Assembly: GCA_003208875.1 (NCBI GenBank)
Contig: QCUR01000006.1
Coordinates: forward strand, 1-64,000
DNA from: Prochlorococcus sp. AG-679-M23
Lineage (GTDB): Bacteria > Cyanobacteriota > Cyanobacteriia > PCC-6307 > Cyanobiaceae
DNA: 64,000 bases
Reading direction: 5' to 3'
The notes under the pieces are model-generated. The model was given only the letters and a program-made list of their open reading frames with translations. It did no database searches and was not told the origin of the DNA. Made by a program: the position numbers and the translations under genes. Within the stretch, counting starts at the first letter, position 1. Each line of letters opens with the position of its first letter. Of this stretch, positions 10,262 through 26,006 are shown piece after piece.

Positions 10262-10361
10262 TAAAAAGAGCTTGCTCGCATCCCTACTAGCAAACTCTCA
10301 TGACGATTTAGTTAAATTCAGATTGACTGAGCTTAACCAGCTAAGCACTTCCTAAATGCTT
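10262..10361 (-). ncRNA. Candidate ~100-nt sRNA (Yfr-type, family not assigned)
   Basis: TATAAT at 10373-10368, GC-richer noncoding body with short hairpins, terminal stem GAGTTTGC/GCAAGCTC plus U-run. Confidence 0.65.
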
Positions 10362-10374
10362 GCTCTTATTATAG

Positions 10375-10409
10375 TAAGTAAAAATACTTAGCGTGAGTAT
10401 AAATACTCA
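10375..10409. promoter_or_regulatory. Two adjacent palindromic operators TAAGTA-AAAA-TACTTA and TGAGTA-TAAA-TACTCA
   Basis: Perfect arms, 3 bp apart, directly upstream of the sRNA -10 box. Confidence 0.7.
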
Positions 10410-11280: not shown

Positions 11281-11625
11281 GATTAAAACCTCTTTTATTA
11301 ATGAAAATAAGGAATCTCTTCTGATTTTTTAGTTTTATAAGAGAAAATACCAAATTGCATACATTATTTGTATGTAAGGATTTTTATAAGACACGCTTAA
11401 AAGCTACTTCTTTTAATACTGTTGTTTATAACTTTTCTTAGTTTGAGTAAGTCTAGCTCTAAGATAGGTTAATAAAATTAGCCAGAATACAATCTCCAAT
11501 CCGATGTTGGTCATCTGATTTCCCTCCAATTATTTGATTTGACTTTAATATGATTTTTATTATTCCGATAGAGTTTTTATACTGATTAAAAACCCAATTA
11601 TATTGAGGTTTTATACCTATTTTTT

Positions 11626-12044: not shown

Positions 12045-12185
12045 TTAGATAAATCCAGGAATAATTTGTCCTGTAGTTAGATATGCTCCAATTAATGCAA
12101 CGAAGCCCATCATGGCAAATCTACCATTTAGTTTTTCAGCTACAATTTTTTCTTTTTCTACTAATTTTGTTTTGTTGTTCTTCAT
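12045..12185 (-). CDS. hli: High-light inducible protein (46 aa)
   Basis: MKNNKTKLVEKEKIVAEKLNGRFAMMGFVALIGAYLTTGQIIPGFI; ATG overlaps the upstream hli stop (TAATG). Confidence 0.95.
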   Translation of the reverse strand: MKNNKTKLVEKEKIVAEKLNGRFAMMGFVALIGAYLTTGQIIPGFI

Positions 12186-12292
12186 TAGAACCAACCAGGA
12201 ATGATTTGCCCAGTTGTAACGTAAGCACCTACTGCTGCTACGAAACCTAACATAGCTGCCCAACCATTAAAACGTTCTGCTTCAGGAGTCAT
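12185..12292 (-). CDS. hli: High-light inducible protein (35 aa)
   Basis: MTPEAERFNGWAAMLGFVAAVGAYVTTGQIIPGWF. Confidence 0.95.
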   Translation of the reverse strand: MTPEAERFNGWAAMLGFVAAVGAYVTTGQIIPGWF

Positions 12293-12465
12293 TTTTAATA
12301 AATAAAGTTATGTTAACAAATATAACACATGTATTTATTTTTGTAAATAATTACACCTAATTGATAGAATTCTGGATCATTGAGATACATATCTGTCACG
12401 TTAATGTCTCAACTATTTCAAATGCCTCTATTTTCTGACCAAGGGTTACGATGCTCCTTTTAAAA

Positions 12466-12594
12466 TTAAGACTTCTCATCAAATTTAGTTTGAAGTTTTG
12501 CCGCCTTATGCAATAAACCTACTGCTTCTTTTCTTCCAGTTGCTATGGATGCTTGATGCAATAAATCTGCGTACTTTTTGTTTAATTTTTTCAT
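12466..12594 (-). CDS. 42-aa helical microprotein
   Basis: MKKLNKKYADLLHQASIATGRKEAVGLLHKAAKLQTKFDEKS; similar to 32402-32530. Confidence 0.7.
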   Translation of the reverse strand: MKKLNKKYADLLHQASIATGRKEAVGLLHKAAKLQTKFDEKS

Positions 12595-13121
12595 TTAATT
12601 TGTAATATTATAAATTCAGGATTGATAAGGAAAAATAAGCATTCATATTTAATCAAAAGATAGATCAAAAAAACTTATATTTCTGAAAGTTTGACTCTAG
12701 CAATTAGTATTCACATTAGAAATTCTTTAGCTTTGTCAATATTAATTAATCTTATCTCTGCCTGAGATATATACATAATACCATTAATTAACTTATAACC
12801 GTGATTTGAGTTAACGTTAATTATTTTATGGTCAAAAATTTAATAGATCTCTAAAGATTTAAAACGTAGCAACAAACTTTTTTAATTATTATTTAATACA
12901 TAAACGAATCTATTTAAATATTGAAAGAACATCGGCAACAGTTTAAAGAAATATAGTTTAAATTTATATTGATTGTGTTTCAGGAGCCTTTTTTTATATT
13001 CTTTTTTTTCTTTTTATTTAGTAACCAAAATCTTGCACTTTATTATTTATAAAAATAATTTTAAGCAGCTTTATTTATTAAAAGAAATCCTCATTTAATA
13101 TAAATTTTAACTAATATTATG

Positions 13122-13160
13122 AAAAGAGTCAGCTAGTAGGGATACAGGCTGACTCTTTTT
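13122..13160 (+). ncRNA. Stand-alone hairpin/terminator homologous to the 3' stem of the 10262-10361 sRNA
   Basis: AAAAGAGTCAGC-TAGTAGGGATACAG-GCTGACTCTTTT, 12-bp perfect stem. Confidence 0.55.
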
Positions 13161-13307
13161 ATTTAGTATTCTTTCTTTTAAAATCTCTTTAATAATTAAC
13201 TAAAAGCAGTCTAATATTTTAATAAATTTCTATTCTTTAAAACTAGGATAAATACTCTTTTACTTTTAGAAAATAATTGCTATTAATAAATTAGATAAAA
13301 AAAAGTT

Positions 13308-13472
13308 ATGTCATTTACTACTTACTATATGCATTTGATTTTCGCTAGCATTCCATCATTATTCAAATCTGATTTGATACTTTATATTTTACCAATTTTA
13401 ACTGCTTCAATATTGTTCTTTAGCTTCAAAATAATGTTTTATAAAGCTCCAAAATTGAGAAGAGCTAAATAA
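13308..13472 (+). CDS. 54-aa TM microprotein
   Basis: MSFTTYYMHLIFASIPSLFKSDLILYILPILTASILFFSFKIMFYKAPKLRRAK; ends 8 bp before the DUF938 gene. Confidence 0.55.
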   Translation: MSFTTYYMHLIFASIPSLFKSDLILYILPILTASILFFSFKIMFYKAPKLRRAK

Positions 13473-13480
13473 AAACTATT

Positions 13481-14104
13481 TTGGATAATAGACTTTTCTT
13501 TCCTGCAACTGAGAGAAATAAAGATTCCATAGCAGAAGTATTATCAAGCATTCTTCTAAAAAAAGGTTATATTTTAGAAATTGGTAGCGGTAGTGGAGAG
13601 CATGCAATTAAATTTCAAAAATGCTTCCCAGAATTAACTTGGCAATCAAGCGATCCGGAACTTGTTCATCGAAAGAGTATTAGTTCTTGGATTGAACATG
13701 AAGAATTAAACTTTAAAATGCCTCAACCTTTAGATATTGATGTAGAGAAAATTCCTTGGGAAATACCAGCTGAATTACTGAATTCTATTCAAGGAATAAT
13801 ATCTATCAATATGATTCATATAGCATCCTGGAACTGTACAAAATCACTGTTTAACGAATCTGGCAATTTATTAAAAAAGGGACAATTTTTGATGTTATAT
13901 GGGCCATTTAAAATAGGTGGTAAGCACACTAGTCAAAGCAATGAATTATTTGATACTTCCTTAAAAATGCAAAACGAATCTTGGGGTGTTAGAGATTTAG
14001 GAGAAGTTAGTGAAGAAGCTAAAAAGAATGATTTTATTGAAGAGGAGCTTATTCGTATGCCTTCTAATAACTTTTCGGTAATTTACAGGAAAGGTTCTTT
14101 ATAA
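13481..14104 (+). CDS. DUF938 SAM-dependent methyltransferase
   Basis: PATERN, LEIGSGSGEH, WQSSD, NMIHI, LYGPF, MPSNN. Confidence 0.9.
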   Translation: MDNRLFFPATERNKDSIAEVLSSILLKKGYILEIGSGSGEHAIKFQKCFPELTWQSSDPELVHRKSISSWIEHEELNFKMPQPLDIDVEKIPWEIPAELLNSIQGIISINMIHIASWNCTKSLFNESGNLLKKGQFLMLYGPFKIGGKHTSQSNELFDTSLKMQNESWGVRDLGEVSEEAKKNDFIEEELIRMPSNNFSVIYRKGSL

Positions 14105-14236
14105 AAGGATTATGAATAATTTTTTTCTGTAAGATTTTTATAAATTAAAAATTCATGAATTCAAATTACACACTTTCTCAATCTATTAATATATATAATT
14201 ATTTTTTCAGCAGTTTTAATATGTTTTAAAAAGAAA

Positions 14237-14398
14237 TTATATTGATAACTGTCTGCTCCATTCTTTATGTTTCGCATCTAAGTCTGATACTTTATCTCCT
14301 AAACTTAATTGCTTTTCTAATAATTGCACTTTGGTAAGTGTTACTTCCTCAGAATAAAACTTGATTGGTTGCTTACCGTGTAAGTTGTCTCCGCTCAT
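14237..14398 (-). CDS. 53-aa hypothetical protein
   Basis: MSGDNLHGKQPIKFYSEEVTLTKVQLLEKQLSLGDKVSDLDAKHKEWSRQLSI. Confidence 0.6.
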   Translation of the reverse strand: MSGDNLHGKQPIKFYSEEVTLTKVQLLEKQLSLGDKVSDLDAKHKEWSRQLSI

Positions 14399-14512: not shown

Positions 14513-15691
14513 TCAATAAGTTGTTTTAATCTTTTTTTTGTAAGAGGATTGCCAAATATATCTTCCTTCATCAACATCTGATTTAACCGCAATACAATTA
14601 CAAGCAATATTCCATAGAGCTTTATGTATTGGATCGGGATTAAAAAGATAGGCTTTATTGAATGCTTTTCTTATTGCAAGAGTAGCCTTGGTAGCATGAT
14701 AGTGAGGAATAGTTGGGCATACATGATGAACTACGTGACTTGAACCAATATTATGATGAAGAATATTAATAATCTTCCCATAAGGCCTATCAATTGAAAG
14801 AAAGGCTCCTCTCATAAAAGAAAATTCTGAATTAGAGAGGTGTGGAACGTCTGAATCTGTATGGTGAAGCCAAGTATATATAACTAACCAACAATTAACT
14901 ACTAATAAAGGTCCTACATACATTCCAATTATTGGAAAGAATCCAATTTTGATAATAAAAATAATAAGTCCAATTATTACTGCAGCTACACCAATATCTG
15001 AAATCCAAACTTTTTTAGCCCATACAGCAGGCCACAATGTTTTAGAAAAAGGTTTTCTTGGCCAAAAATGATTTGAAGTTCCATATTTGAGACCACCTGT
15101 ACTTCCAGATAATAAGTAAGCAGGCCAACCAAAAATAAGATGTAGAACCAATTGGAGAATTCCATACTTAGTTTTGCCTAATTTACTTGAGAAAGATAGT
15201 TCCTTTTCACCTCCAACTTTTTCGCTAATTCCATTCCCATCAATAACTATGGGCACGTGAGTTTCTCCATTAGTTATATGATTGGTGAAACGATGATGGA
15301 CTGCATGTGAACGTTGCCAAGAGAAATACGGAACTAATAATAATGAATGAAGTAAATATCCAGTAATGGTTTCCAAAGTTTTATTTTTTGAGAAGGCTCC
15401 ATGACCACATTCATGGGCAATTACCCAAAAACCCATAGCAGTGGTTCCTGATAAAAGTGCATAAAGGATCCAAATCGGGATCATTCTTTGACTAAAAGGA
15501 ATTGTTAATCCTATTGCGACAACAATTGCCTGAATAATGATTGATTGTAAAAGATAGCCTAATGAAGTTATTGTTTGAGATTTAAAGCATTTATTTGGAA
15601 TAACACTTTGAAACTCTTTCATGCTTGGAATATCACTCATCTTTATTGAAAGTGCTTGACCTTTAAGGCCAGAAAATTTAATATCGCTCAA
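14513..15691 (-). CDS. desA: Delta-12/omega-6-type fatty acid desaturase
   Basis: His boxes HECGH, HAVHH, HVVHH; VPYFSW, IDRPYG, IPHYHA. Confidence 0.9.
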   Translation of the reverse strand: MSDIKFSGLKGQALSIKMSDIPSMKEFQSVIPNKCFKSQTITSLGYLLQSIIIQAIVVAIGLTIPFSQRMIPIWILYALLSGTTAMGFWVIAHECGHGAFSKNKTLETITGYLLHSLLLVPYFSWQRSHAVHHRFTNHITNGETHVPIVIDGNGISEKVGGEKELSFSSKLGKTKYGILQLVLHLIFGWPAYLLSGSTGGLKYGTSNHFWPRKPFSKTLWPAVWAKKVWISDIGVAAVIIGLIIFIIKIGFFPIIGMYVGPLLVVNCWLVIYTWLHHTDSDVPHLSNSEFSFMRGAFLSIDRPYGKIINILHHNIGSSHVVHHVCPTIPHYHATKATLAIRKAFNKAYLFNPDPIHKALWNIACNCIAVKSDVDEGRYIWQSSYKKKIKTTY

Positions 15692-16115
15692 ATTATTATG
15701 GGTTAGGATTTAGTTTTTAATAAATTTTAGTTTATATGATTAATTATCCATCAAAGACTCTTTTTATGAAAGTAATATGTAGTTTCAAATATTCAAATAG
15801 TATTAATTTGGACAAGTTTTTGAAAATTAATTAACATTTTTAAATCTTCATAGGTTGTAAATTATTAGTAAATAAATAATAAAAATTATTTTATGACAAT
15901 CAATAAAACTAAATATAGAAATAAAGTAGAAGTAATCGCGAAGGCAGAAAGAGGTAAGATTAAACCAGTATTTAGCCATCTAAAAAATCTAATTTTTCTG
16001 TTAATTACTTTTACCATTTTTTAAAAAGGGTTAATCTAAACTTATTGAAGCACCAAGGCTTCAACAAATAAACTTAATAAATTTCAGTAACAAAAAAATA
16101 TTTAATATTTCCAAT

Positions 16116-16754
16116 TTAAAATAAGTTCATCTGATCAGTAGGCTTCTTATTAATTTCTTCCGTTATCCATCCAGAAGATGACCATCCCAACATTAAGGCT
16201 ATTAACCCTTTTAATTCATGAGCATCCTTAACCTGTTCAGTCCATTGTTCTTCGTATCCATTAGGAACAATAACTGGCATACGATGATGTAAAGGTTTCA
16301 CTAAATTATTTGGTTCAGTTGTTAAAACACAGCAACTTTCTAACTCTGCTCCATCAGGTGAAGACCATTTACTCCAGATCCCTCCTAACCAAAAAGTTTC
16401 GTAATTCTCTTTCCTAATACGATAGTTTTTTTCAAAAAAACCACTTGCTGGTATTAAACATCTTTTATGTTTCCAACTTCCACTAAATAATTTTTTCTCT
16501 TCCACAGTTTCTGATCTCGCATTAAATGGTCTGGGTCTTGTCTTATCAAAAGGATCTTTAGCCCAAGGTGATATAAAACCCCATGACATAAAAGTTGTCT
16601 TAATTTTTCCTTCATTCTTAATTACAAGGACTGGATCAGTAGGTCTAATTAAATTCTGTGTCTCGTATTTATTATCAAGCCCACTTGGATAGTCTTGTTT
16701 TAAAACTTTTGGTAACTTATCAAATTTAGTTTTAAGTTCAAATCTTCCGCACAT
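16116..16754 (-). CDS. SRAP / SOS response-associated peptidase (YedK/HMCES family)
   Basis: MCGRF N-terminus, FNARSET, RCLIPASGFFE, HHRMPV. Confidence 0.93.
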   Translation of the reverse strand: MCGRFELKTKFDKLPKVLKQDYPSGLDNKYETQNLIRPTDPVLVIKNEGKIKTTFMSWGFISPWAKDPFDKTRPRPFNARSETVEEKKLFSGSWKHKRCLIPASGFFEKNYRIRKENYETFWLGGIWSKWSSPDGAELESCCVLTTEPNNLVKPLHHRMPVIVPNGYEEQWTEQVKDAHELKGLIALMLGWSSSGWITEEINKKPTDQMNLF

Positions 16755-16807
16755 ATTAAATATCAGTGTTTGGTTTTTAAATTTTATTGGAAATTTATTT
16801 GATTGAT

Positions 16808-17485
16808 TTAAAATCCTTTATATAACTTTAAATAATAAATAATTTCTGATAACTCATTAATTTTTTGAATTTTTTCTTGGTTAAATTCATTTATTAATTT
16901 ATTTAGTATCCCAATATCTTTGGAAAAAAACATTAAATTACATTCCGCTTTTAGTCCTGAGATAGATCCTGCATATGAGTCTTCTATAACCCAAGATTTC
17001 CTTGGATCTACATCTAATAATTTTAATGCTCTTAAATAGGGATCAGGAGAAGGCTTGCCATTAGAAATGAACTTATCATCTCCAAGAACCTTTGTTTTGA
17101 ATAAATTTAACCAGGGATTTACAGAGCTTTTGATTTTAAAACTTTCACTACTACTACTTGTTACTAAAGCAATAGGTAATTTTGTATTTATACAAAAATT
17201 GATTAATTCTATTGCTCCCTTAAAAGGTTTTGCTCTAGTCAGTACTTTATCTACTTTTAATTTTTGAATAATGAGTAATTCTTCTAATGGGTTTTCTTTA
17301 TTTATCCATTTAAGGACTTTTTTTGCACAATCTATTCTCCTTCTTCCTTTTAATTCTAATAATTTATCGATTGATAAAGAGTGATTATATTCTTTTGCGG
17401 TTTCACTCCAGGCATTAGCTAGTAATGGTTCTGTATCTAATAGAACACCATCTAAATCAAAAAGAATTGCTTCTGGGAATTCCAT
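16808..17485 (-). CDS. HAD-superfamily phosphatase
   Basis: FDLDGVLLDTE, VTSS, GKPSPDPY, IEDS. Confidence 0.92.
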   Translation of the reverse strand: MEFPEAILFDLDGVLLDTEPLLANAWSETAKEYNHSLSIDKLLELKGRRRIDCAKKVLKWINKENPLEELLIIQKLKVDKVLTRAKPFKGAIELINFCINTKLPIALVTSSSSESFKIKSSVNPWLNLFKTKVLGDDKFISNGKPSPDPYLRALKLLDVDPRKSWVIEDSYAGSISGLKAECNLMFFSKDIGILNKLINEFNQEKIQKINELSEIIYYLKLYKGF

Positions 17486-17635
17486 CTTTGTTGAAATATC
17501 TTAGATAAACTATTATTTAATATAGTCTTTTTTTATTTCGATATTTAATTACTTTTTGTCTTTCAATAATAATATTTTAGAAATCTGGATTGATTTTATA
17601 AGCCTCGAACGTATCTTTTAGGAGGCAATGATTCC

Positions 17636-17728
17636 TTACGTGGCTTTACTAATATTGGCAAAATAATAACTCCGACAGTAAAAACACATATTGGAGCAAC
17701 AACCATGAGTATAGATTCTAGAGACATG
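17636..17728 (-). CDS. 30-aa TM microprotein
   Basis: MSLESILMVVAPICVFTVGVIIFANISKAT. Confidence 0.55.
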   Translation of the reverse strand, partial: HVSRIYTHGCCSNMCFYCRSYYFANISKAT

Positions 17729-17921
17729 AATTTATTTTCAAATTTATCTTACAAATAGCAGTATTTATTTTTTTAGTCATGCGTATTTATATCTAATAAG
17801 GCTATATCTTTACAACTTTTTATATTGTTAAGCAAAAGCGAAAAAAAGATTAAATATGATAAGTTCTTTAGATTTATATCCTAGATAACACCTAGTAAAT
17901 TTTAATTGAGGAATTATTTTT

Positions 17922-18068
17922 ATGAATCAAGATAAAAAATGGATGTTAATGACTTACTACTGCCCAACTCATGGTGATGCAGGAAAAGTAGAACCTATAC
18001 AAGTGACAAGGCAAGAAATTTACAGTAAATTATACGATAAGTCTAAATCTAAAAAGGAAATTAAATAA
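17922..18068 (+). CDS. 48-aa hypothetical protein
   Basis: MNQDKKWMLMTYYCPTHGDAGKVEPIQVTRQEIYSKLYDKSKSKKEIK; GAGG upstream. Confidence 0.6.
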   Translation: MNQDKKWMLMTYYCPTHGDAGKVEPIQVTRQEIYSKLYDKSKSKKEIK

Positions 18069-18098
18069 CCTAAATTTTCAAAAACAGGTAAGTAAAGC

Positions 18099-18133
18099 TT
18101 GACAGTGATAAGTATAAATACTTTTAGTAGGGT
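18099..18133 (+). promoter_or_regulatory. Promoter region with TTGACA and operator TAAGTA-TAAA-TACTTT
   Basis: TTGACA 18099-18104; operator 18109-18124. Confidence 0.55.
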
Positions 18134-18135
18134 GT

Positions 18136-18342
18136 ATCTTCAAGGACAAAAACGTCCGATATGCTTTAGTTAACCCCATCATTACTCGAGTCAAAGGCGT
18201 TGGCTTGAGCATTTTTAGGAGACTGCATTCTGGTTTACATGTATTTAAAGCGAACGTATTTGTTTATTGCAAAGTAATTAATAATAAATTTGAAAAATTA
18301 ACCTATAGAGGTTTAAGTTACTTTTGTGACTAAATTGAAGAT
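18136..18342 (+). ncRNA. Candidate structured RNA/leader containing a YRG-motif ORF
   Basis: Hairpins 18144-18157 and 18185-18209; 8-bp end-to-end complement 18136-18143/18335-18342. Confidence 0.4.
18205..18333 (+). CDS. 42-aa peptide with a DUF4278-like LTYRGxxY motif (TTG start, uncertain)
   Basis: MSIFRRLHSGLHVFKANVFVYCKVINNKFEKLTYRGLSYFCD; frame open from 18118. Confidence 0.5.
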   Translation: MSIFRRLHSGLHVFKANVFVYCKVINNKFEKLTYRGLSYFCD

Positions 18343-18371
18343 CTTAAGTTTCAAAAAACAAAAAATTAAAT

Positions 18372-19247
18372 TTATAGTTTGTTTTTTGATAATTTATTAG
18401 AGTTAATTATTTCCCATGCTTCTGAAGCTTTATCAGCATATTTAAAAATTTTTAAATCCTCTTCGCTAATAAGCCCGAGATCAGCAAGGAAGCCAAAATT
18501 AATTAAATTATTCCAATATTTCCTGCCAAATAAAATTATTGGAATTTCACTTTTCATTCCTGTTTGACGAAGAGTTAATAATTCAAATAATTCGTCTAAT
18601 GTCCCAAATCCTCCAGGAAAAAAAACAGCAGCAACAGAGCGCATTACAAAATGGATTTTGCGTAATGCAAAATAATTAAATTTAAAACAAAGTCCAGGTG
18701 TTATAAAAGAATTTGGGAATTGTTCATTCGGTAACTGTATGTTTAAACCAATAGACTTACAGTCTGCTTCAAAAGCGCCTCTATTAGCCGCCTCCATAAT
18801 TCCTGGTCCACCTCCTGTCACTATTACATGAGAATTGCATTTATCATTTTGATTATTTATTGAAGCTAGTTTTGAAAATTCTCTTGCGGATTCATAGTAA
18901 TGACTCATAGAAAGTAAATTTTTTAATTTGTTAAATTTATTTTTTAATTTAATAGATTGAGGACATTTTTCTAATAAGTTTTTTACTTCATCGATTTTGC
19001 TCTGAGCTGATGATTCTTCGATAATTTTTGCACCTCCAAAAACGATAATAGTTGAGATGATATTTTGTTCTTCTAGTACTAATTCAGGCTTAGTTATTTC
19101 CAGCAGCATTCTTACACCTCTCATTTCGTCTCTTCTAAGTAAATTAAGATCTTCCTGTGCAAGTTTGTAGGAATTTGAATCAAGTATTAAATTTAGATTT
19201 TTTTCTCTATTATCTGTATTATTGAGCTTTTTGAAGTCGTTAATCAT
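18372..19247 (-). CDS. LOG-family (lysine decarboxylase-like) nucleotide-binding protein
   Basis: TGGGPGIMEAANRGA, PGGFGTLDE. Confidence 0.93.
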   Translation of the reverse strand: MINDFKKLNNTDNREKNLNLILDSNSYKLAQEDLNLLRRDEMRGVRMLLEITKPELVLEEQNIISTIIVFGGAKIIEESSAQSKIDEVKNLLEKCPQSIKLKNKFNKLKNLLSMSHYYESAREFSKLASINNQNDKCNSHVIVTGGGPGIMEAANRGAFEADCKSIGLNIQLPNEQFPNSFITPGLCFKFNYFALRKIHFVMRSVAAVFFPGGFGTLDELFELLTLRQTGMKSEIPIILFGRKYWNNLINFGFLADLGLISEEDLKIFKYADKASEAWEIINSNKLSKNKL

Positions 19248-19344
19248 GGATTCAAGAATAAATATGTTTTTATATAGAGAATTGATCTTTTTAAAAATTG
19301 TTATTTAAAAAATAATAAATATAGTTTTTCTTTTACCTATTTAC

Positions 19345-19494
19345 CTATTCATCTAAATCGCATGTCAATTCACATTGATTCAGTTCAGAAGCAGAAATTC
19401 TATCCAAGATTCTCAGCATATCAATTTCAGAAAGATCTCCATTAGAGTTCCACTTTAGAGTTGTTTTTCTTTGAAGAGAATATCTTTTATTCAT
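19345..19494 (-). CDS. 49-aa hypothetical protein
   Basis: MNKRYSLQRKTTLKWNSNGDLSEIDMLRILDRISASELNQCELTCDLDE; GGAG upstream, overlaps the upstream ORF. Confidence 0.7.
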   Translation of the reverse strand: MNKRYSLQRKTTLKWNSNGDLSEIDMLRILDRISASELNQCELTCDLDE

Positions 19495-19645
19495 TTTTAT
19501 TTACTCCCTTAAGATGAATTTCTACACATCTAGTAATACATTCTTGATGTCCATCTACAATGCTGCATTCACTAATGCATTCAAAATATGAATCTATGGT
19601 ATCTTTTGCTTTTATTTGATTCGACGAAAAAAACAACTCATCCAT
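19487..19645 (-). CDS. 52-aa twin-CX3C microprotein
   Basis: MDELFFSSNQIKAKDTIDSYFECISECSIVDGHQECITRCVEIHLKGVNKNE; AAGGA upstream. Confidence 0.7.
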   Translation of the reverse strand: MDELFFSSNQIKAKDTIDSYFECISECSIVDGHQECITRCVEIHLKGVNKNE

Positions 19646-19827
19646 AATTTTTGTTCCTTAATGTGGAATGAGATATAGCATGACTTTAAAAAATAATTTT
19701 TCCTTTGTTAAGAAAATTGGGATAAATAAGTATTAGTTACTAGTCTTAAGTTTTGATTTTATAAAGAGGCAAAGGCACAGTTCCTAACTTGTTTTATTGG
19801 ATCTATTAAATACTTAAAAACTTAATC

Positions 19828-20061
19828 TTAGTAATTTAAATTTTTACTTTTAGGTTGATTCTTTAGCAACTTCTCTGATTTAGATTTATAACTATCTGGG
19901 TCCCAATCTTGTTGGATATCTTTAATGAAATCAAAAATAAATTCATTAGGACATTCAAGTTCTTTGTGAAGATCATTTAATTTTTGATGTATATATTTTT
20001 TAGTGCAATAAATTAATCTGTCTTTTTGATAATTTGTAGGCTGCCATTGTTTGTTATTCAT
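19828..20061 (-). CDS. Hypothetical protein (CPxE...WD family)
   Basis: 77-aa ORF; similar to 26280-26450. Confidence 0.7.
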   Translation of the reverse strand: MNNKQWQPTNYQKDRLIYCTKKYIHQKLNDLHKELECPNEFIFDFIKDIQQDWDPDSYKSKSEKLLKNQPKSKNLNY

Positions 20062-20106
20062 ACAGATTATTTCCTTATTACTATGCTTATATTCTTCTTA
20101 GTGGTA

Positions 20107-20146
20107 TTAAAAAGTAAATCAGCATAAAGACTGATTTACTTTTTAA
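20107..20146. repeat. Perfect 16-bp inverted repeat with an 8-bp spacer
   Basis: TTAAAAAGTAAATCAG-CATAAAGA-CTGATTTACTTTTTAA between divergent genes. Confidence 0.85.
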
Positions 20147-20158
20147 AAATTTCGTTAG

Positions 20159-20341
20159 ATGATAAGAATGTACTTTTTAGATTTTCAAATGAGATCAATT
20201 ATGAATTGGCTTTCTAAAATGTTAGAAAGCATGGCAAATGCTTTTATTCATCCTGTTAAAAATGATTTACCCCCATCTATTGGAGCTCACGCTTACAGTA
20301 GCATTCCTCTAAAAAGGAAAATGCGAAGAAGACTCAGCTAG
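20159..20341 (+). CDS. Small hypothetical protein (start may be a later ATG)
   Basis: MNWLSKML...PPSIG..AYS..P. Confidence 0.6.
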   Translation: MIRMYFLDFQMRSIMNWLSKMLESMANAFIHPVKNDLPPSIGAHAYSSIPLKRKMRRRLS

Positions 20342-20344
20342 TAT

Positions 20345-21451
20345 TTAATTAATTGGAATTAGATTCTGGTTCTTGCTGTCCCAAATAATATATCTAAAAC
20401 AATTTGGGAAATCACTTAATTTGAGAACTTTTGATTTTTGCAGTAAATGTTTATTTGCTTTATGACAAGATCTTAAATTGTAATTAGGAATTCTTTCTGA
20501 TAGATGATGAATGCTATGGAACGAAATATCAGCTAAAAACCAATTTAACCAATTTGGGATATCTAAATTGCTACTGCCAGAAATAGCCCCTTCGACAATA
20601 TCCCAATTTTTTGTATTACTTGCGTAGGCATTTTCATAGTTATGTTGTATAAAAAAGATACATATGAAAATCGCTGCTGAAAAAGTTAATATTAGTGAAT
20701 AAAAAGTTAAGAAAAAAGCAGCTCCTAACCATTTACACATAATTATCCATCCACTTATCACAATAATATTGTTTGCTATTAGATCGAATAATTCATCAAA
20801 ATTGTCTCCATAGTCAGAGAAAGGAGGCTTGATTCTCGATTGAATATTTAAAAGTTCTAAATAATTTCTTTTTTTTAATTTAATAAAAGTTTCTTGCATT
20901 AAAGTTTTTATAAAATTAAGGATAATTAGAATTAACCCTAATCTGGCTTTAATAACTAAATAAAAGAAACCACCAGGAAAAAGCATTAACCAATGTCTAC
21001 TTACCTTATAAATAATTTTTTCTCTTTTATTAAGAGCCTCATAATCTTCTAGGCTTAAAACATCAACAGGACCTTTGTAAATTTCCCAATTCCCATTATT
21101 CCTATGATGGAATGCATGGTCATTAGCCCAAGGTTTATGAGGTATCCCATTTAATAAACCCAGAAAAAACCCACATAAGTTATTCAAAGAACGTTTTTCA
21201 AATAAGGAATTATGTCCACAATCATGCATTAATGAGAATGTTCTCGAAGATAGGAGGGTAAGAAGAAAAAAAACTGGAATCAATAAAAACCCTTTTGTGA
21301 TTTGCAAAAGAGGAGAATATACAATTTTAGAGACAATAAACCAAAGAGAAATTACCGGTATAAGAGTATTTATTAGCTGATAGGAAGCTTTGAAATTATT
21401 TCTTTTAAGAAATGGCTTTAATATAAAATCAGACCTCTTGATTTTATTCAT
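20345..21451 (-). CDS. Membrane fatty acid desaturase (second, divergent)
   Basis: HDCGH, HAFHH, HSIHH His boxes; RIPNYNL. Confidence 0.9.
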   Translation of the reverse strand: MNKIKRSDFILKPFLKRNNFKASYQLINTLIPVISLWFIVSKIVYSPLLQITKGFLLIPVFFLLTLLSSRTFSLMHDCGHNSLFEKRSLNNLCGFFLGLLNGIPHKPWANDHAFHHRNNGNWEIYKGPVDVLSLEDYEALNKREKIIYKVSRHWLMLFPGGFFYLVIKARLGLILIILNFIKTLMQETFIKLKKRNYLELLNIQSRIKPPFSDYGDNFDELFDLIANNIIVISGWIIMCKWLGAAFFLTFYSLILTFSAAIFICIFFIQHNYENAYASNTKNWDIVEGAISGSSNLDIPNWLNWFLADISFHSIHHLSERIPNYNLRSCHKANKHLLQKSKVLKLSDFPNCFRYIIWDSKNQNLIPIN

Positions 21452-21577
21452 ATAAATTTTTCTTTAATTCTCTTTAATTAGGATAGCTTAGTTATTATTT
21501 ATCGTGGCAAAGTTTTCAATTTGCCGATATACGAAAACTATAGCCAATACTTCGTTATTGATTCATTTGATTGGAAT

Positions 21578-22573
21578 TTATTTTAAAGAATTACTCATAT
21601 CTATTAAAGTTTTTTCTAATGAAATAGGTTCCCAATTAAATATAGAAATAGTTTCCGTAATATCAGCGCCATAAGATCCTCTATTAACCATGGCAGCCAT
21701 ACTTTTCATCTCTTTATTAAATGGGGCCAGAGAATTTATCATTTTTGTAGGAATAAAGTTTTGTGGTGCTTTCTTGTAGCCATTTTTTCTTAAAATATTA
21801 GAAATTTCCATAATATTGATCCCTTGAGGAGAAGTCGCAATTATTCTTTTATTATCACTTTGGTTTTTTCTAAGAGATTCGACATGTAACTTGGCGACAT
21901 CTCTTACATCTACGACAGTAAAATATGCATCTGGTAGTGCTGGAAATTTACCATTAATCATTTTTGAAAGAAGTTCTGCCGAAGCACCATCAACATCATC
22001 ACTTAGCAGTGGACCAAAAACCATCCCAGGATGAATAGTTGTCATTGAAAAAGAGTGTTCATTGTCATTATGAATAAAATCCCATGCAGCTTTTTCTGCA
22101 ATTGTTTTACTTTTTACATATGCACCAACGTTTTTTGTTGTATCTGTCCAGTCTTCAGGCGAGCATAACTGCTTGTTATGCCCATATGCAATTGCAGCCA
22201 TAGAAGAAGTCAGGACAACTTTCTTGACTTTAGAGGAATTTTTTGAAGCATTCAATGCTCTTAAAGTTCCCTCTAATGCAGGATTGATAAGAATAGATTC
22301 CTTTTTTGGCTCTTCGATAGTAAAAGGAGATGCAACATGAAGAAGATAATCACAATCAAAGGCTGCCTCATCCCATCCCTCATCATCTAGAAGGTCAAGT
22401 TTACAAAATTCCAGCTTATGATTTTCTGAATCTTTATCAAGAGATTTTCTTACTTCATCTTCTCTATTCATATTTCTTAGAGATCCTTTGACAAGATAAC
22501 CTGCTTTTATTAGCTCATGTATGCAGTGAATAGCAATAAACCCAGATGCACCAGTAACTAAAACTTTTTCCAA
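21578..22573 (-). CDS. NAD(P)-dependent epimerase/aldehyde reductase (extended SDR)
   Basis: VTGASGFIA, HVASP, TSS, YVKSK. Confidence 0.92.
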   Translation of the reverse strand: MEKVLVTGASGFIAIHCIHELIKAGYLVKGSLRNMNREDEVRKSLDKDSENHKLEFCKLDLLDDEGWDEAAFDCDYLLHVASPFTIEEPKKESILINPALEGTLRALNASKNSSKVKKVVLTSSMAAIAYGHNKQLCSPEDWTDTTKNVGAYVKSKTIAEKAAWDFIHNDNEHSFSMTTIHPGMVFGPLLSDDVDGASAELLSKMINGKFPALPDAYFTVVDVRDVAKLHVESLRKNQSDNKRIIATSPQGINIMEISNILRKNGYKKAPQNFIPTKMINSLAPFNKEMKSMAAMVNRGSYGADITETISIFNWEPISLEKTLIDMSNSLK

Positions 22574-22719
22574 AATAATTTTGTTTTATTTCTACTTTTA
22601 TTATGATCTATTAGACTGCACAAAATACAAAAGGATTTTTAATAATATAGTTTTTAGAACTTTATTTTCAACATAAGTATTTAAGAATTTAAAAACTAAT
22701 GAGTTGCTTGAATATTATT

Positions 22720-22998
22720 TTAATTGCCATGATGTCTACTATTTCTTCTGGAGCGATCTTTTTGCTCCGCCTTGTTAACTCTAATTTCTCTACCCATCCA
22801 CTCGACATCTTGTAAATCATCAATCGCAGTTTTCTCGGAGCTTTCGCTAGTCATTTCAACAAAGCCAAAACCTCTTTTTCTTCCTGAATCCCTCTCCAAA
22901 GGGATTGTACATTTTTTAACTTCACCATAAGTCTTGAAAAGTTCTCTAAGGTCTTCTTCTTCAGTGTCCCAGGATAAATTCCCAACAAAAATTGTCAT
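22720..22998 (-). CDS. rbp: RRM RNA-binding protein
   Basis: RNP2 IFVGNL, RNP1 RGFGFVEM. Confidence 0.93.
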   Translation of the reverse strand: MTIFVGNLSWDTEEEDLRELFKTYGEVKKCTIPLERDSGRKRGFGFVEMTSESSEKTAIDDLQDVEWMGREIRVNKAEQKDRSRRNSRHHGN

Positions 22999-23147
22999 AA
23001 TTCAATAAATTATTTGGTAGAAGATGCAATAACAAGGCATATTAAATAAATATGTGATTAAACGCTTCTTATTTTTTACTATTGTATATCACTTATGTTT
23101 AATTTTTAGAGTTAGCTTTTAATTAATCTATTTATTTATTTTAAGAT

Positions 23148-23303
23148 TTAGAGAATAAACTCTTTAGACATTGTTCTTAATTGATCTAAATTTAGTTTAT
23201 TTAAATAATTTATTATTTCATTAGAACTTTCTCTCGATTTGAGATTTTGACTTTCGCAAATCAAACTGTTTGAGATTAGATCTATAAGATGTTGTTTGTC
23301 CAT
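23148..23303 (-). CDS. 51-aa hypothetical protein
   Basis: MDKQHLIDLISNSLICESQNLKSRESSNEIINYLNKLNLDQLRTMSKEFIL; AAGGAG upstream. Confidence 0.65.
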   Translation of the reverse strand: MDKQHLIDLISNSLICESQNLKSRESSNEIINYLNKLNLDQLRTMSKEFIL

Positions 23304-23441
23304 GACTCCTTATAAGCCATTTTTTTGTATTAAAAACTAAAAATCTTGAATTCCAAACCTTATTCTATGGTTATTATTAATATTTTTCTAATTTCGAAAC
23401 TATTTGTCTCTAAAAGTGGTTTTTAAATTTGTTTCTTAATT

Positions 23442-23663
23442 TTATAAATTTTTTAATTCTTGATCTATTTTTTGCAATCTTTCATTTAATTCTTGCTTTT
23501 CTTTTGATAAAGATTTTTTCTTTTTTTGGAGTTCTTTATTAAAAGGTGAATTAAAGTATTTTTGATAAGCTAAGAAAAATACTGCTAACGCTACAACAAT
23601 ACCAAGTGCTCCAATTATTAATAAAGGTGATGATGGGAAATCGTAAAAAGGTACTGAAGGCAT
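23442..23663 (-). CDS. Small TM plus coiled-coil protein
   Basis: One TM helix followed by a heptad-rich tail. Confidence 0.7.
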   Translation of the reverse strand: MPSVPFYDFPSSPLLIIGALGIVVALAVFFLAYQKYFNSPFNKELQKKKKSLSKEKQELNERLQKIDQELKNL

Positions 23664-23879
23664 TTGCTCTATAAACCTTTATCTTAGCTTTTTTTTGATT
23701 TAAATAATATAAGATAAATACCTAATATTTTATTTATCTAGTTTTTGCTATCAATAAAAAAAGTCTTACCCAATTATATAAACAAATTTTCTAAAGTAAC
23801 TTATTAATAATCCTTCCAAATATAAATATGAGTAATTGTACAGGTGTCAAATAGATAATGATCAATAATCATTAATGTA

Positions 23880-24215
23880 GTGAATATATTGTTAATGAAG
23901 AAAATCGTTAAAGAAGAGAGTGAGAATACATCTGAATTATGGTTTAATTGGTTGACTAGAAAACTAAATTCTTATGAGGCTTTTAAAGACTTTGCCTCAG
24001 GTCAAAATCCTGAAGATGTAGCAGAGAATTTTGTTGCAATTAATAGTTTGGGGATATCCGATATTTTTGATAAATTTGATGAAGAAGATAAAGATACACT
24101 TGACCAATTTCAAAAGTTATCTGAATGTGAATGGCATGTATTCAGAATTCTTAAAAAACAATTAGAATTTAAAAATAAAGTAACTTTTGTTGATTTTAAA
24201 AAAAATAAAAAATAA
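23880..24215 (+). CDS. Hypothetical protein (paralog of 35770-36036)
   Basis: ELWF.W, AE.FV, KFDE, F.KLSE.E.H shared; likely start ATG 23895. Confidence 0.75.
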   Translation: MNILLMKKIVKEESENTSELWFNWLTRKLNSYEAFKDFASGQNPEDVAENFVAINSLGISDIFDKFDEEDKDTLDQFQKLSECEWHVFRILKKQLEFKNKVTFVDFKKNKK

Positions 24216-24255
24216 AAGAAAAAAAATAAAGTTTATAAAACGCTTTAAATTTTAA

Positions 24256-24293
24256 GTACGGTTTAATGAACATCTTTGTTCGGTTAAGACATG
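24256..24293. promoter_or_regulatory. Tandem K-box-like sites
   Basis: GTACGG-TTTA-ATGAAC (24256) and GTTCGG-TTAA-GACATG (24278), 22-bp period. Confidence 0.5.
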
Positions 24294-24351
24294 AAAATTA
24301 GGCTCAATGTAGACCATCTTTTTATTAAGTTATAAGAAATTAATAGATATC

Positions 24352-24483
24352 ATGAAAAACTTGATTAGCTCCTTCTCTGTTCTTAATTTTAAAAAGTATT
24401 TGCATAAAAATTTAAAGGAAAATACTTTGAACAATAAAGAAAATTTAGTTCATTACAGAAGGGATTTAGACTCTTTAGGTTGA
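24352..24483 (+). CDS. 43-aa hypothetical protein
   Basis: MKNLISSFSVLNFKKYLHKNLKENTLNNKENLVHYRRDLDSLG. Confidence 0.5.
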   Translation: MKNLISSFSVLNFKKYLHKNLKENTLNNKENLVHYRRDLDSLG

Positions 24484-24493
24484 TAATCAAAAT

Positions 24494-24829
24494 TTAAAAA
24501 AATTTTGACTTCCCATTTCCAGATTTACCAAAACCAATCCATAAGAACCATACTATCCAGCCAAAAACAGGTATCAAATTTATAAATATCCACTTCCAGT
24601 TCTTTCCAAAGTCTCTTAACCTTCTAACATCAATAGCAATCTGAGGGACTATACAAACTAATCCATAAATATTAAAACCAAATGTTCTTAGAAATATTGG
24701 AATAGTAAAAATTGATATAATAATGTTTACTAATTGAACTCGCCACCAATCAGATCTTGTTGTTGTGCTATTAAAGTTTGTAGCTTTAAGCCAAAATTCT
24801 TGATAGGCATTCAAAAAATTCTTATACAT
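24494..24829 (-). CDS. DUF805 inner-membrane protein
   Basis: F...TTRSDWW, VRRLRD.GK.WKW, LIPVFG. Confidence 0.88.
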   Translation of the reverse strand: MYKNFLNAYQEFWLKATNFNSTTTRSDWWRVQLVNIIISIFTIPIFLRTFGFNIYGLVCIVPQIAIDVRRLRDFGKNWKWIFINLIPVFGWIVWFLWIGFGKSGNGKSKFF

Positions 24830-24915
24830 AAGATCTAAATTTAATCATTTATTAAATAAACATTATTATTCAAAGATTATTCACTTAAGAGAATTAATTT
24901 ATGTATGCCTTAATT

Positions 24916-25080
24916 TTAAATAGGATCGAATAAATTCACATTGTTTTTAATTATGTTTTGATTTTGATTTTGATTTGGTAATGTACAAAAGCCGTCCTTA
25001 CAAATGATATTTTCTTTTTCAATTTTCAATGACTGGGGGAAAGCATCATCCTTTGAATTATTAGAAGATTCAATTTGCAT
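24916..25080 (-). CDS. 54-aa hypothetical protein
   Basis: MQIESS...IICKDGFCTLPNQNQNQNIIKNNVNLFDPI. Confidence 0.6.
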   Translation of the reverse strand: MQIESSNNSKDDAFPQSLKIEKENIICKDGFCTLPNQNQNQNIIKNNVNLFDPI

Positions 25081-25161
25081 ATATATAAAATTAAAAGAAA
25101 CATCATTAAATTAATAACTAAATTTATTTGAATAGGCAACAAAATTAATAATAATTATCTT

Positions 25162-25260
25162 TTACTTCTTTTTTTGATTTGGAAGATCTCTCCAAAATAG
25201 AGCCATGACATAGATAAATAAAAAAATAGAAAAAATATAAAGTAGAGAATTAAGATGCAT
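25162..25260 (-). CDS. 32-aa TM microprotein
   Basis: MHLNSLLYIFSIFLFIYVMALFWRDLPNQKKK. Confidence 0.5.
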   Translation of the reverse strand: MHLNSLLYIFSIFLFIYVMALFWRDLPNQKKK

Positions 25261-25416
25261 CTTGAGTTTTCGTCAGAAAAAGCTTATTAAAACAAAATAT
25301 TAATCCAATAAATGAGCAATTTCTATTTAACTTAAGATATATTTTAAATATAATTTATAGTTTGATTTCTTCTGGTTTATAAAATTTACATGAAGAATAA
25401 AGGGAAATAAAAATGC

Positions 25417-25536
25417 TTATTTGGTATTTTTACTCATTTCTTTAAGAGCCTCCTTACCTTCTTTAAGCGTTTTATTTACTAACCAATAAAGAAAAAGGAG
25501 AATCAAAATGGCTAACATTATTAATGACGTAGTCAT
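25417..25536 (-). CDS. 39-aa TM microprotein
   Basis: MTTSLIMLAILILLFLYWLVNKTLKEGKEALKEMSKNTK. Confidence 0.55.
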   Translation of the reverse strand: MTTSLIMLAILILLFLYWLVNKTLKEGKEALKEMSKNTK

Positions 25537-25598
25537 TTTAAATTATGATAGTTAATTTCATTTCTAAAATTTTTGAGTTTATATTTCGAAAATCAGAA

Positions 25599-25778
25599 TT
25601 AATTCTTAGCGCTTGAGTATGCAGGAATCATCATTCCTCCATCTTGATCATCATTATCATCGTCAAATCCACCACCAAGAAACAACTCAACCAATACTAA
25701 TATTGCTATGGGGTAGAAACACCATAAGATTGCTGAAAAAGGACTTATTGAAGAAGTTGTTGAGTAAATTTCTGTCAT
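25599..25778 (-). CDS. 59-aa TM protein with acidic DDDNDDQDGG tail
   Basis: MTEIYS...AILWCFYPIAILVLVELFLGGGFDDDNDDQDGGMMIPAYSSAKN. Confidence 0.8.
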   Translation of the reverse strand: MTEIYSTTSSISPFSAILWCFYPIAILVLVELFLGGGFDDDNDDQDGGMMIPAYSSAKN

Positions 25779-26006
25779 ACAAATATAATAAACAAAAAAA
25801 AAGTTAATTGTGGATATTTTGATCTGTATTCTCTCCTAGAAATTTTATGAAATACAAAATGAAAAACTAGAATAATAATTGTTAGGTAAAGGGTCTAGAG
25901 AATAATTCTTTAAGAAATTATCTCCTTATTTGATTTCAAAATATAAGTTTTTTACTTAAATATTTTCTACTAATTAACTAATATTGACGTATTGAGAGAT
26001 ATCAAT

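Follow-up and report, generated by a model that had tools for sequence, protein, structure and literature searches.

What is the element at positions 13122-13160 in the DNA of Prochlorococcus sp. AG-679-M23, where an inverted repeat is followed by a run of T in a region in which no protein gene ends? The locus lies in a window of 64,000 nucleotides, the whole stretch that was analyzed (contig QCUR01000006.1, positions 1 to 64,000). An earlier note, made from the sequence alone, described it as the second copy of a GGGA-capped hairpin and proposed a two-member small-RNA family or a protein-binding RNA module. We compared the hairpin with its homologs in the genus and with published transcript data for strain MED4. 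The hairpin is real and under selection. We consider it likely that it is the Rho-independent terminator of a conserved small RNA that is catalogued in MED4, homologous to the terminators of the small RNA Yfr20 and of hli (high-light-inducible protein) operons.

RESULTS

Anatomy of the hairpin

The following elements make up the hairpin.

13122..13160 (+): hairpin and T-run under study, read as the probable intrinsic terminator of a small RNA
13122-13125 (+): A4 (AAAA), which can pair with the T-run and extend the stem
13126..13155 (+): stem-loop proper, an outer stem of nine pairs (one of them U-G), then a 1x1 internal loop and an apical helix of 3 bp capped by the GGGA loop
13137..13144 (+): apical motif TAGGGATA, near-invariant family-wide, with the GGGA tetraloop at 13139-13142
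13156..13165 (+): T-run, T5 (13156-13160) and then ATTTA

The plus-strand RNA of 13122-13165 folds at -20.1 kcal/mol (z -6.5), and none of 200 shuffles folded as well. At the apex, TAGGGATA places the GGGA tetraloop atop two A-T pairs. GGGA closed by A-T matches the G-N-R-A pattern of four-base loops by sequence only, and to this extent the earlier description of the apex as a GNRA loop holds. The statement that the element is not an ordinary terminator is not supported. No protein gene ends at 13122-13160, yet a stable, G+C-containing stem-loop with T5 directly 3' of it on the transcribed strand is the anatomy of an intrinsic terminator, and the twin of this hairpin is the terminator of Yfr20. 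At least five T within the eight bases starting at the last stem base were found in 36 of 38 distinct orthologs; the other two have just three T past the stem, with the hairpin unchanged. A scan for promoter and terminator consensus sequences called no terminator and gave 5 promoter-like sites against 7.7 ± 3.2 expected, which is uninformative in such A/T-rich DNA. The scan missed the hairpin at 13122-13160 because of its loop limit of 3-8.

Compensatory changes and strand

Two occurrences of the 12-mer GCTAGTAGGGAT were counted in the window, where 0.17 would be expected, and none of 100 shuffles contained two or more. Its second occurrence marks the second hairpin, which is indeed present at 10297-10263 on the minus strand, as had been claimed. 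Both copies fold strongly, the second at -17.4 kcal/mol (z -4.5; 0 of 200 shuffles as good). When the stems of the two copies were compared, two pairs differed on both sides (C-G to U-A and A-U to U-A), one U-A was replaced by U-G, and a U-A of the apical helix was likewise replaced by U-G. Since stem pairs have changed on both sides around a shared core, the covariation claim is right, and larger alignments agree with it. In an alignment of 23 hairpin copies from 17 genomes (A1), 99.6% of the 276 pair cells were standard pairs and 5 of the 12 pairs showed two-sided changes, values reached in none of 500 column shuffles. A further alignment (A3) held 25 more diverse family members, including copies with wholly different stems. 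Here 95.7% of cells were paired, and two-sided changes were seen in 7 of 12 pairs and in 36 cells, where shuffles gave 13.1 ± 3.2 cells and none of 500 reached 36. Compensatory changes were also found within the orthologs of the locus itself (genomes G015, G006, and G018).

The strand could be assigned as well. The consensus U-G pair, present in 19 of 23 copies, and the other wobble pairs fit RNA of the plus strand only. A covariance model built from the 23 copies of A1 (R1) scored 13122-13160 with 73.9 bits on the plus strand versus 35.9 bits on the minus strand. Covariation, strand-specific wobble, and a near-invariant apex bear out the proposal that RNA structure is under selection together with a conserved loop.

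These data bear on a different reading, in which the element is no RNA element but a palindrome in the DNA, either the operator of a dimeric regulator or a sequence that mimics GTA-N4-TAC. The earlier note had raised such mimicry as speculation. The inverted repeat does stand in a divergent promoter region, and GTA-N4-TAC is over-represented in the window (18 sites versus 6.5 ± 2.6 expected; 0 of 100 shuffles reached 18), with two sites just upstream of the Yfr20 -10 box. However, the compensatory substitutions and the G-T wobbles keep pairing in the RNA of one strand and break the symmetry of the DNA, and the strand asymmetry of the R1 scores argues in the same direction. The TAC half is not kept in paralogs, being TGC in Yfr20 and TAT in a copy on contig C11. 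The arms evolve as RNA pairs, and copies of the hairpin also occur at the 3' ends of genes. The spacers of the other 17 sites are mostly A/T-rich, and the GGGA of the hairpin is the most G-rich. We regard this reading as largely refuted and extremely improbable.

As a separate observation, the two sites directly upstream of the Yfr20 -10 box, at 10378-10387 and 10397-10406, form a candidate binding site for a light-responsive regulator; other sites lie at 17184, 18112, 26180, 38351, 56216, and elsewhere.

Relationship to Yfr20

The comparison with Yfr20 involves three features.

10273..10361 (-): Yfr20 small RNA (Rfam RF02367, 107.1 bits, E 1.5e-18)
10263-10297 (-): 3' hairpin of Yfr20, the second copy described above, corresponding to the 3' stem of the RF02367 model
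13063..13125 (+): possible body of an RNA of ~100 nt, beginning AAGCA as Yfr20 does, suggested by a weak match to the Yfr20 covariance model and by local similarity

An Rfam scan of the whole window gave two matches at the gathering score, one tRNA and Yfr20 (RF02367). In MED4, Yfr20 is described as an abundant RNA of 89 nt in genomic island 5, mapped by 5'RACE and Northern blot, located less than 2 kb from hli11 and hli12, and the only ncRNA induced upon transfer to high light (Steglich et al. 2008, PMC2518516). Table 1 of that paper gives homologs solely in MIT9515 and MIT9312, and a table of PMC2897979 lists a half-life of 2.0 min.

The terminator module of 13122-13160 is, on the evidence of its sequence, homologous to the Yfr20 terminator. 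Upstream of the hairpin, a collinear stretch of 25 nt is identical to the Yfr20 body at 20 of 25 positions, with a score of 23 against 15.9 ± 2.2 in shuffles (6 of 500 reached it). The segment 13063-13150 gave a weak full-length match to RF02367 of 18.7 bits (E 0.5-1.5), under the gathering cut-off of 44 bits. That the locus is Yfr20 itself was rejected, as 18.7 bits fall short of this cut-off and the true Yfr20 scores 107.1. A low-threshold Rfam scan of 12300-13500 gave 12 matches, all far under their cut-offs, and the printed alignments other than that of Yfr20 match on the terminator.

For the 38 orthologs, RNAalifold predicted the terminator alone, so the two 5' hairpins of the Yfr20 consensus were not seen and no consensus structure of the RNA body was obtained. 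Folds of the body in single sequences disagree with each other. Short hairpins around CCTC do form in many orthologs, in differing registers.

Distribution of the terminator module

The AG-679-M23 genome (G000, 1.65 Mb) holds four exact copies of GCTAGTAGGGAT, two of them in the window. The other two are the following.

C2:304319-304370 (+): third copy, 12-mer at C2:304333, ~20 nt 3' of an hli stop
C11:1611-1662 (-): fourth copy, 12-mer at C11:1637, just 3' of a small ORF

The four copies have ~55-75 nt in common, and the flank CGTCATGAG or a variant of it is found in all except the copy at 13122-13160. Sites that differ from the 12-mer by one mismatch, three in this genome and 24 in five complete genomes, do not fold as this hairpin. 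The idea of a two-member sRNA family therefore needs revision, since the genome has four copies, two of them after an hli gene or a small ORF; both window copies do stand at small-RNA loci, namely Yfr20 and the ortholog of a MED4 contig labelled yfr27.

A covariance-model search, which had been suggested as a check, showed that the module is conserved in the genus. With E ≤ 0.01 as the threshold, R1 had matches in 142 of 151 genomes of the genus, paralogs included (117 with E < 1e-8), and in 49 of 50 of its high-quality genomes. In a draw across the family, all seven genomes of the genus were matched, and of 143 genomes representing 41 other genera, one was. This single sister-genus match was rejected as a family member, being a weak match to an ordinary terminator without the motif. 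The whole genomes of five hli-carrying Prochlorococcus phages gave no match (best score 18.8 bits, E 0.22). A phage origin was also rejected by two other searches. A blastn search of 13080-13170 against 50,697 phage records gave seven short matches (query 6-51) to non-cyanophage records, mostly with the A/T-rich upstream part, and the 10 loci from an exact-pattern scan of IMG/VR included no such hairpin.

We inspected the host units of 20 lower-ranked R1 matches in the genus. Fifteen copies follow hli or small-ORF units, four belong to Yfr20, and one is of the ortholog type. Among the 15, twelve sit 126-129 nt 3' of a 44-aa hli ORF and, judged by sequence likeness to the L115 copy, directly after a ~36-aa ORF; two follow a small ORF of the same tail, with no hli ORF in the 200 nt examined; and one directly follows an hli gene. 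The module shares homology with the terminators of Yfr20 and of hli or small-ORF operons, and so these transcription units of the high-light island all close with one common module. A search of the literature on Prochlorococcus, hli, terminators, and hairpins returned no paper describing the module by title and abstract.

Two side observations concern the host units. In many genomes of the genus, the ~36-aa ORF, ending ...TTTTNTF(V/I), is found again with a 44-aa hli gene before it and the shared terminator after it (C11:1611-1700 (-) in G000; loci L114-L133). It resembles a small membrane protein that is unannotated and is co-transcribed with hli. G015 carries three more diverged relatives with the same flank and different stems and loops. 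Two identical copies of a diverged terminator module in G015, at 772717-772798(-) and 1344591-1344672(-), probably follow duplicated hli clusters, and the contigs of Lott et al. 2020 (PMC7368042) include antisense contigs over both.

Conservation of the locus

The surroundings of the hairpin contain the following features.

13087..13097 (+): block ATCCTCATTTA upstream of the hairpin, conserved in alignments of 17 and 38 orthologs
13112..13117 (+): TAATAT, 8 nt before the stem, conserved in the same alignments and resembling a -10 box
13308..13472 (+): conserved 54-aa small membrane-like ORF, located downstream of the element and co-oriented with it in 43 of 44 ortholog copies
13481..14104 (+): DUF938 protein, PMM1383-like (Pfam PF06080, E 2.7e-63)
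12045..12292 (-): two hli-type ORFs, divergent from the element (weak Pfam Chloroa_b-bind match of 19.2 bits, below the cut-off)

A query of 421 nt around the hairpin matched 22 of 24 other genomes of the genus and none of 16 that belong to other families of the class. When 17 and then 38 distinct orthologs were aligned, they showed conservation of ATCCTCATTTA, of an A/T-rich stretch ending in TAATAT, of the hairpin, and of the promoter region and start of the 54-aa ORF, while neighbouring intergenic DNA diverges or becomes unalignable. The spacing between ATCCTCATTTA and TAATAT is fixed in most sequences. Among 44 ortholog-type copies, the distance from the hairpin loop to the ATG of the 54-aa ORF is most often ~108 nt, and an hli-type motif is present upstream on the opposite strand in 36. 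The ATCCTCATTTA block could be either part of the RNA, as a possible seed, or a promoter-proximal DNA element. When complements were used to search for targets, the block gave 113 hits (≤1 mismatch) and the loop 28 (≤2 mismatches), among which nothing stood out by eye. A mini-ORF across the stem (ATG, 3-4 codons, TAG), found in some copies, was rejected as it is absent from the MED4-coordinate ortholog and most others.

The hli-type ORFs at 12045-12292 (-), one of 72 aa and the other of 35 aa, overlap in different frames. They probably represent a tandem pair of short hli genes, in which case the long N-terminal extension of the first would be spurious.

Could the hairpin be a relic without function that remains from the 3' end of an hli or Yfr20 cassette after duplication? 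Its homology to the hli and Yfr20 terminators would fit this, as would the lack of a listed TSS in one MED4 data set (PMC5607370). However, all five complete genomes checked have a nearly unchanged hairpin at this locus, and 43 of 44 ortholog-type copies precede the same ORF. Counting paralogs, the module is found in 142 of the 151 genomes of the genus, while the intergenic DNA beside it diverges, and compensatory changes occur within orthologs. This pattern largely refutes a relic, which we consider very improbable.

Transcript data for MED4

G015 carries Yfr20 at 1336435-1336523(+), exactly the published MED4 coordinates (PMC2518516), and its coordinates were therefore read as those of MED4. 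The flanks in G015 are 82-84% identical to the window, and its ortholog of the 12-mer is located at 1333783-1333794(-), inside the MED4 contig 1333763-1333821(-). This is contig 10130 in Table S3 of Lott et al. 2020 (PMC7368042, supplement file 6), with a length of 58 nt, an RNAz z of -4.71 and a probability of 0.977. It is supported by 5 metatranscriptome reads from a primary-transcript-enriched library and carries the manual label 'yfr27' with no Rfam model (PMC7368042). The contig, as drawn from these 5 reads, starts 21 nt before the stem of the hairpin and ends 3 nt past T5. Judged by its matching position and strand, 13122-13160 is the ortholog of the MED4 stretch labelled 'yfr27'.

The label itself is ambiguous. 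In supplement file 6 of PMC7368042 (rows 6 and 369), a second place, 1348946-1348997(-), reads '3' region of yfr27', and no row of the file carries yfr25; one of the two yfr27 labels is probably a slip. The sequence of 1348946-1348997(-) is unrelated to that of 1333763-1333821(-). The names Yfr22-27 were presumably introduced by Voigt et al. in 2014; a full-text literature search for Yfr27 found three papers, none of which dealt with cyanobacteria. The supplement of Hou et al. 2016 contained no match to the names or coordinates, and that of Wang et al. 2014 no ncRNA at this place.

Among the starts taken from the MED4 TSS tables (PMC5607370, files 7-10) of Read et al. 2017, for N-stress and control cultures, none lies on the minus strand between 1333562 and 1338319. 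The small RNA, if made, would therefore be below detection in those cultures. The starts given in the region are 1333562(-), 1334143(+), 1334592(+) for hli12, 1335359(+), and 1336436(+) for Yfr20, and none of these would begin the RNA of the hairpin. The start at 1333562(-), which appears in three of the four tables (files 7, 8, and 10), lies 188 nt before PMM1383 and downstream of the hairpin; by mapping it is 15 nt before the small ORF. Wang et al. 2014 called operon 342 (PMM1383 and HyPMM214) from 1333547. These two positions indicate that the downstream genes have their own promoter.

For the orphan TSS at 1335359(+), an observation apart from the hairpin, Read et al. 2017 (PMC5607370) give 15,000-26,000 reads. 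By blastn (92% identity) this TSS maps to ~11535 (-) of the window, a few bases upstream of a conserved ~33-aa ORF (MTN...KQQY) at 11413-11529 (-). This ORF is a very highly expressed small gene whose TSS was classed as orphan, with no gene assigned.

In public RNA libraries, contigs of three libraries from two studies cover 13025-13160, and contigs of two libraries, at 13131-13342 and 13131-13497 with a depth of 4-13, run from the hairpin into the downstream gene. The latter could be read-through or contaminating DNA. The contigs that end at 13160 share 30 bases with those that begin at 13131, as expected where an assembly branches at a repeat. These libraries may hold DNA, one was oligo-dT primed, and the contigs show neither strand nor ends; nothing was drawn from their cover, gaps, or ends.

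The position of the hairpin before an operon raises the question of whether it is a leader terminator. As an attenuator of the 54-aa ORF and DUF938 operon, it would be entered from a promoter at the TAATAT box, and regulated read-through would control the operon. The fixed linkage favors this, with 43 of 44 copies having a co-oriented ORF, mostly ~108 nt from loop to ATG, as do the conserved ATCCTCATTTA block and TAATAT box with their spacing fixed in most sequences and the RNA-library contigs that bridge hairpin and ORF. However, the MED4 operon has its own listed start at 1333562(-) (PMC5607370), which lies 15 nt ahead of the small ORF and thus past the hairpin, and the published operon call begins at 1333547 (Wang et al. 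2014). The same hairpin closes Yfr20 and hli units with nothing following on that strand, and an alternative, anti-terminator pairing was looked for and not found. An attenuator is improbable on this evidence, and we retain the terminator of a separate small RNA as the preferred explanation.

Conservation of the apex

Across the 38 orthologs, 14 of 14 apical columns are invariant while the flanks drift. In the 25-sequence alignment, six of the eight positions of TAGGGATA are invariant and the other two are kept at ≥90%, compared with one invariant column among the 18 of the outer stem. GGGA is present in 24 of the 25 members, and one has GTGA. In G002, G003, G054, and G114 the stems are replaced, and the TAGGGATA apex and the 5' flank CGTCATGAG are retained. 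Conservation of the loop among homologs, on which the earlier note had staked its claim, was thereby found in both the orthologs and the wider family. The loop is far more conserved than termination alone requires, and the contrast between loop and stem, the one feature that an ordinary terminator fails to explain, hints at a sequence-specific reader. A control terminator for this comparison was sought at the same loci, but 14096-14245 contained no clean hairpin, so the contrast within the family is the sole control.

With regard to genome content, R1 gave no ortholog-type copy in G002, G003, G054, and G114 (92-99% complete; loci L150-L154 and L156), but hli-linked terminators are present in them.

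The stem-loop may also, or mainly, be a sequence-specific 3' tag, in which the TAGGGATA apex is read by a putative RNA-binding protein or ribonuclease, or docks as a GNRA tetraloop, and by which the carriers (Yfr20, the RNA of 13122-13160, and hli operons) are treated alike. This would be compatible with termination. The invariant apical columns of the orthologs, the retention of the apex in the 25 members with entirely different stems, and the four genomes that keep apex and CGTCATGAG on replaced stems all point to such a role. In addition, the 2 of 38 orthologs without a good T-run still keep the hairpin, and every identified host unit is either hli-linked or the high-light-induced Yfr20. 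On the other hand, common descent and gene conversion among copies could keep the loop alike, and the Rfam scans of the window and of 12300-13500 found the motif in no family besides Yfr20. Yfr20 is also short-lived, with the half-life of 2.0 min listed in PMC2897979, so the tag is not simply stabilizing. We consider this role possible, if rather unlikely. Its fuller version is a tentative and doubtful one, in which the TAGGGATA-capped stem-loop would be a dedicated 3' tag on the high-light-stress transcripts of high-light-adapted Prochlorococcus (Yfr20, the yfr27-like RNA, and hli operons), and a putative RNA-binding protein or ribonuclease reading it would jointly set termination, decay, or placement.

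DISCUSSION

In the explanation that we favor, the hairpin would be the Rho-independent terminator and the 3'-end-protecting stem-loop of a plus-strand small non-coding RNA gene located between the divergent hli genes and the promoter of the 54-aa ORF and DUF938 operon. The structure with its covariation and strand, the conservation and synteny, the homology to the Yfr20 terminator, and the published MED4 contig and label are shown; we infer transcription in AG-679-M23, the 5' end of the RNA, and termination activity as follows. RNA polymerase would start between ~13063 and ~13120. The nascent RNA of 13126-13155 would fold into nine outer pairs, the internal loop, and the 3-bp helix capped by GGGA, and the T5 run would release a transcript of roughly 45-100 nt.

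Two starts are possible. The first is at ~13063 and would give an RNA of ~100 nt that begins AAGCA like Yfr20 and carries the CCTC block as a possible seed; the weak full-length covariance-model alignment, the upstream similarity to Yfr20, and the short CCTC hairpins in many orthologs are consistent with it. The second lies after a -10-like box at 13096-13117 and would give an RNA of 45-60 nt, which fits the 58-nt MED4 contig of PMC7368042; the conserved block would then be a promoter element.

Several observations count against the terminator explanation. No start for this RNA is among those taken from the MED4 tables of PMC5607370, the support in PMC7368042 amounts to 5 reads, and the 'yfr27' label given there is ambiguous. 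Two of 38 orthologs have just three T, RNA-library contigs bridge into the downstream gene, and the RNA body has no consensus structure.

If the hairpin is the end of a catalogued but uncharacterized small RNA, the original observation is largely explained, and its interest is modest, resting on the near-invariant loop tip common to high-light-linked transcripts. The interest for bench work lies in the surrounding pattern, one terminator module with a near-invariant 8-base tip that closes several high-light-linked units. This module was found in nearly every genome of the genus searched and was not detected in the sister genera and hli-carrying phages searched. If the tag reading were true, a terminator loop would mark a post-transcriptional regulon in an organism with very few regulators. 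A protein that reads the tip would offer a handle on how light stress is coordinated after transcription in a cell with very few transcription factors.

Among known systems, the intrinsic terminators of bacterial sRNAs and mRNAs are similar in having a G+C-rich stem and a T-run at the end of a unit, the stem here being kept by covariation. They differ in that ordinary terminators do not keep their loop, whereas here an 8-nt apex is near-invariant across orthologs and paralogs and the module stands at several unrelated units. The element resembles GNRA tetraloop hairpins in that GGGA fits G-N-R-A and is closed by A-T and T-A pairs; the likeness is one of base sequence, and no receptor or partner is known. 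The resemblance to MED4 'yfr27' consists in the orthologous position, the same strand, and a contig that covers the hairpin and ends at the T-run, under a name that comes from one table cell with which a second row of the same table conflicts (PMC7368042). Yfr20 is also among these systems. It and the 13122-13160 locus share an identical 12-mer GCTAGTAGGGAT, the same pairing scheme and architecture of the 3' terminator hairpin, and collinear similarity ~35-60 nt upstream of it, and the loci lie within 3 kb of each other, beside hli genes. In contrast to Yfr20, the 13122-13160 locus is without the two 5' hairpins and the CGTCATGAG flank, and its element is far more widespread.
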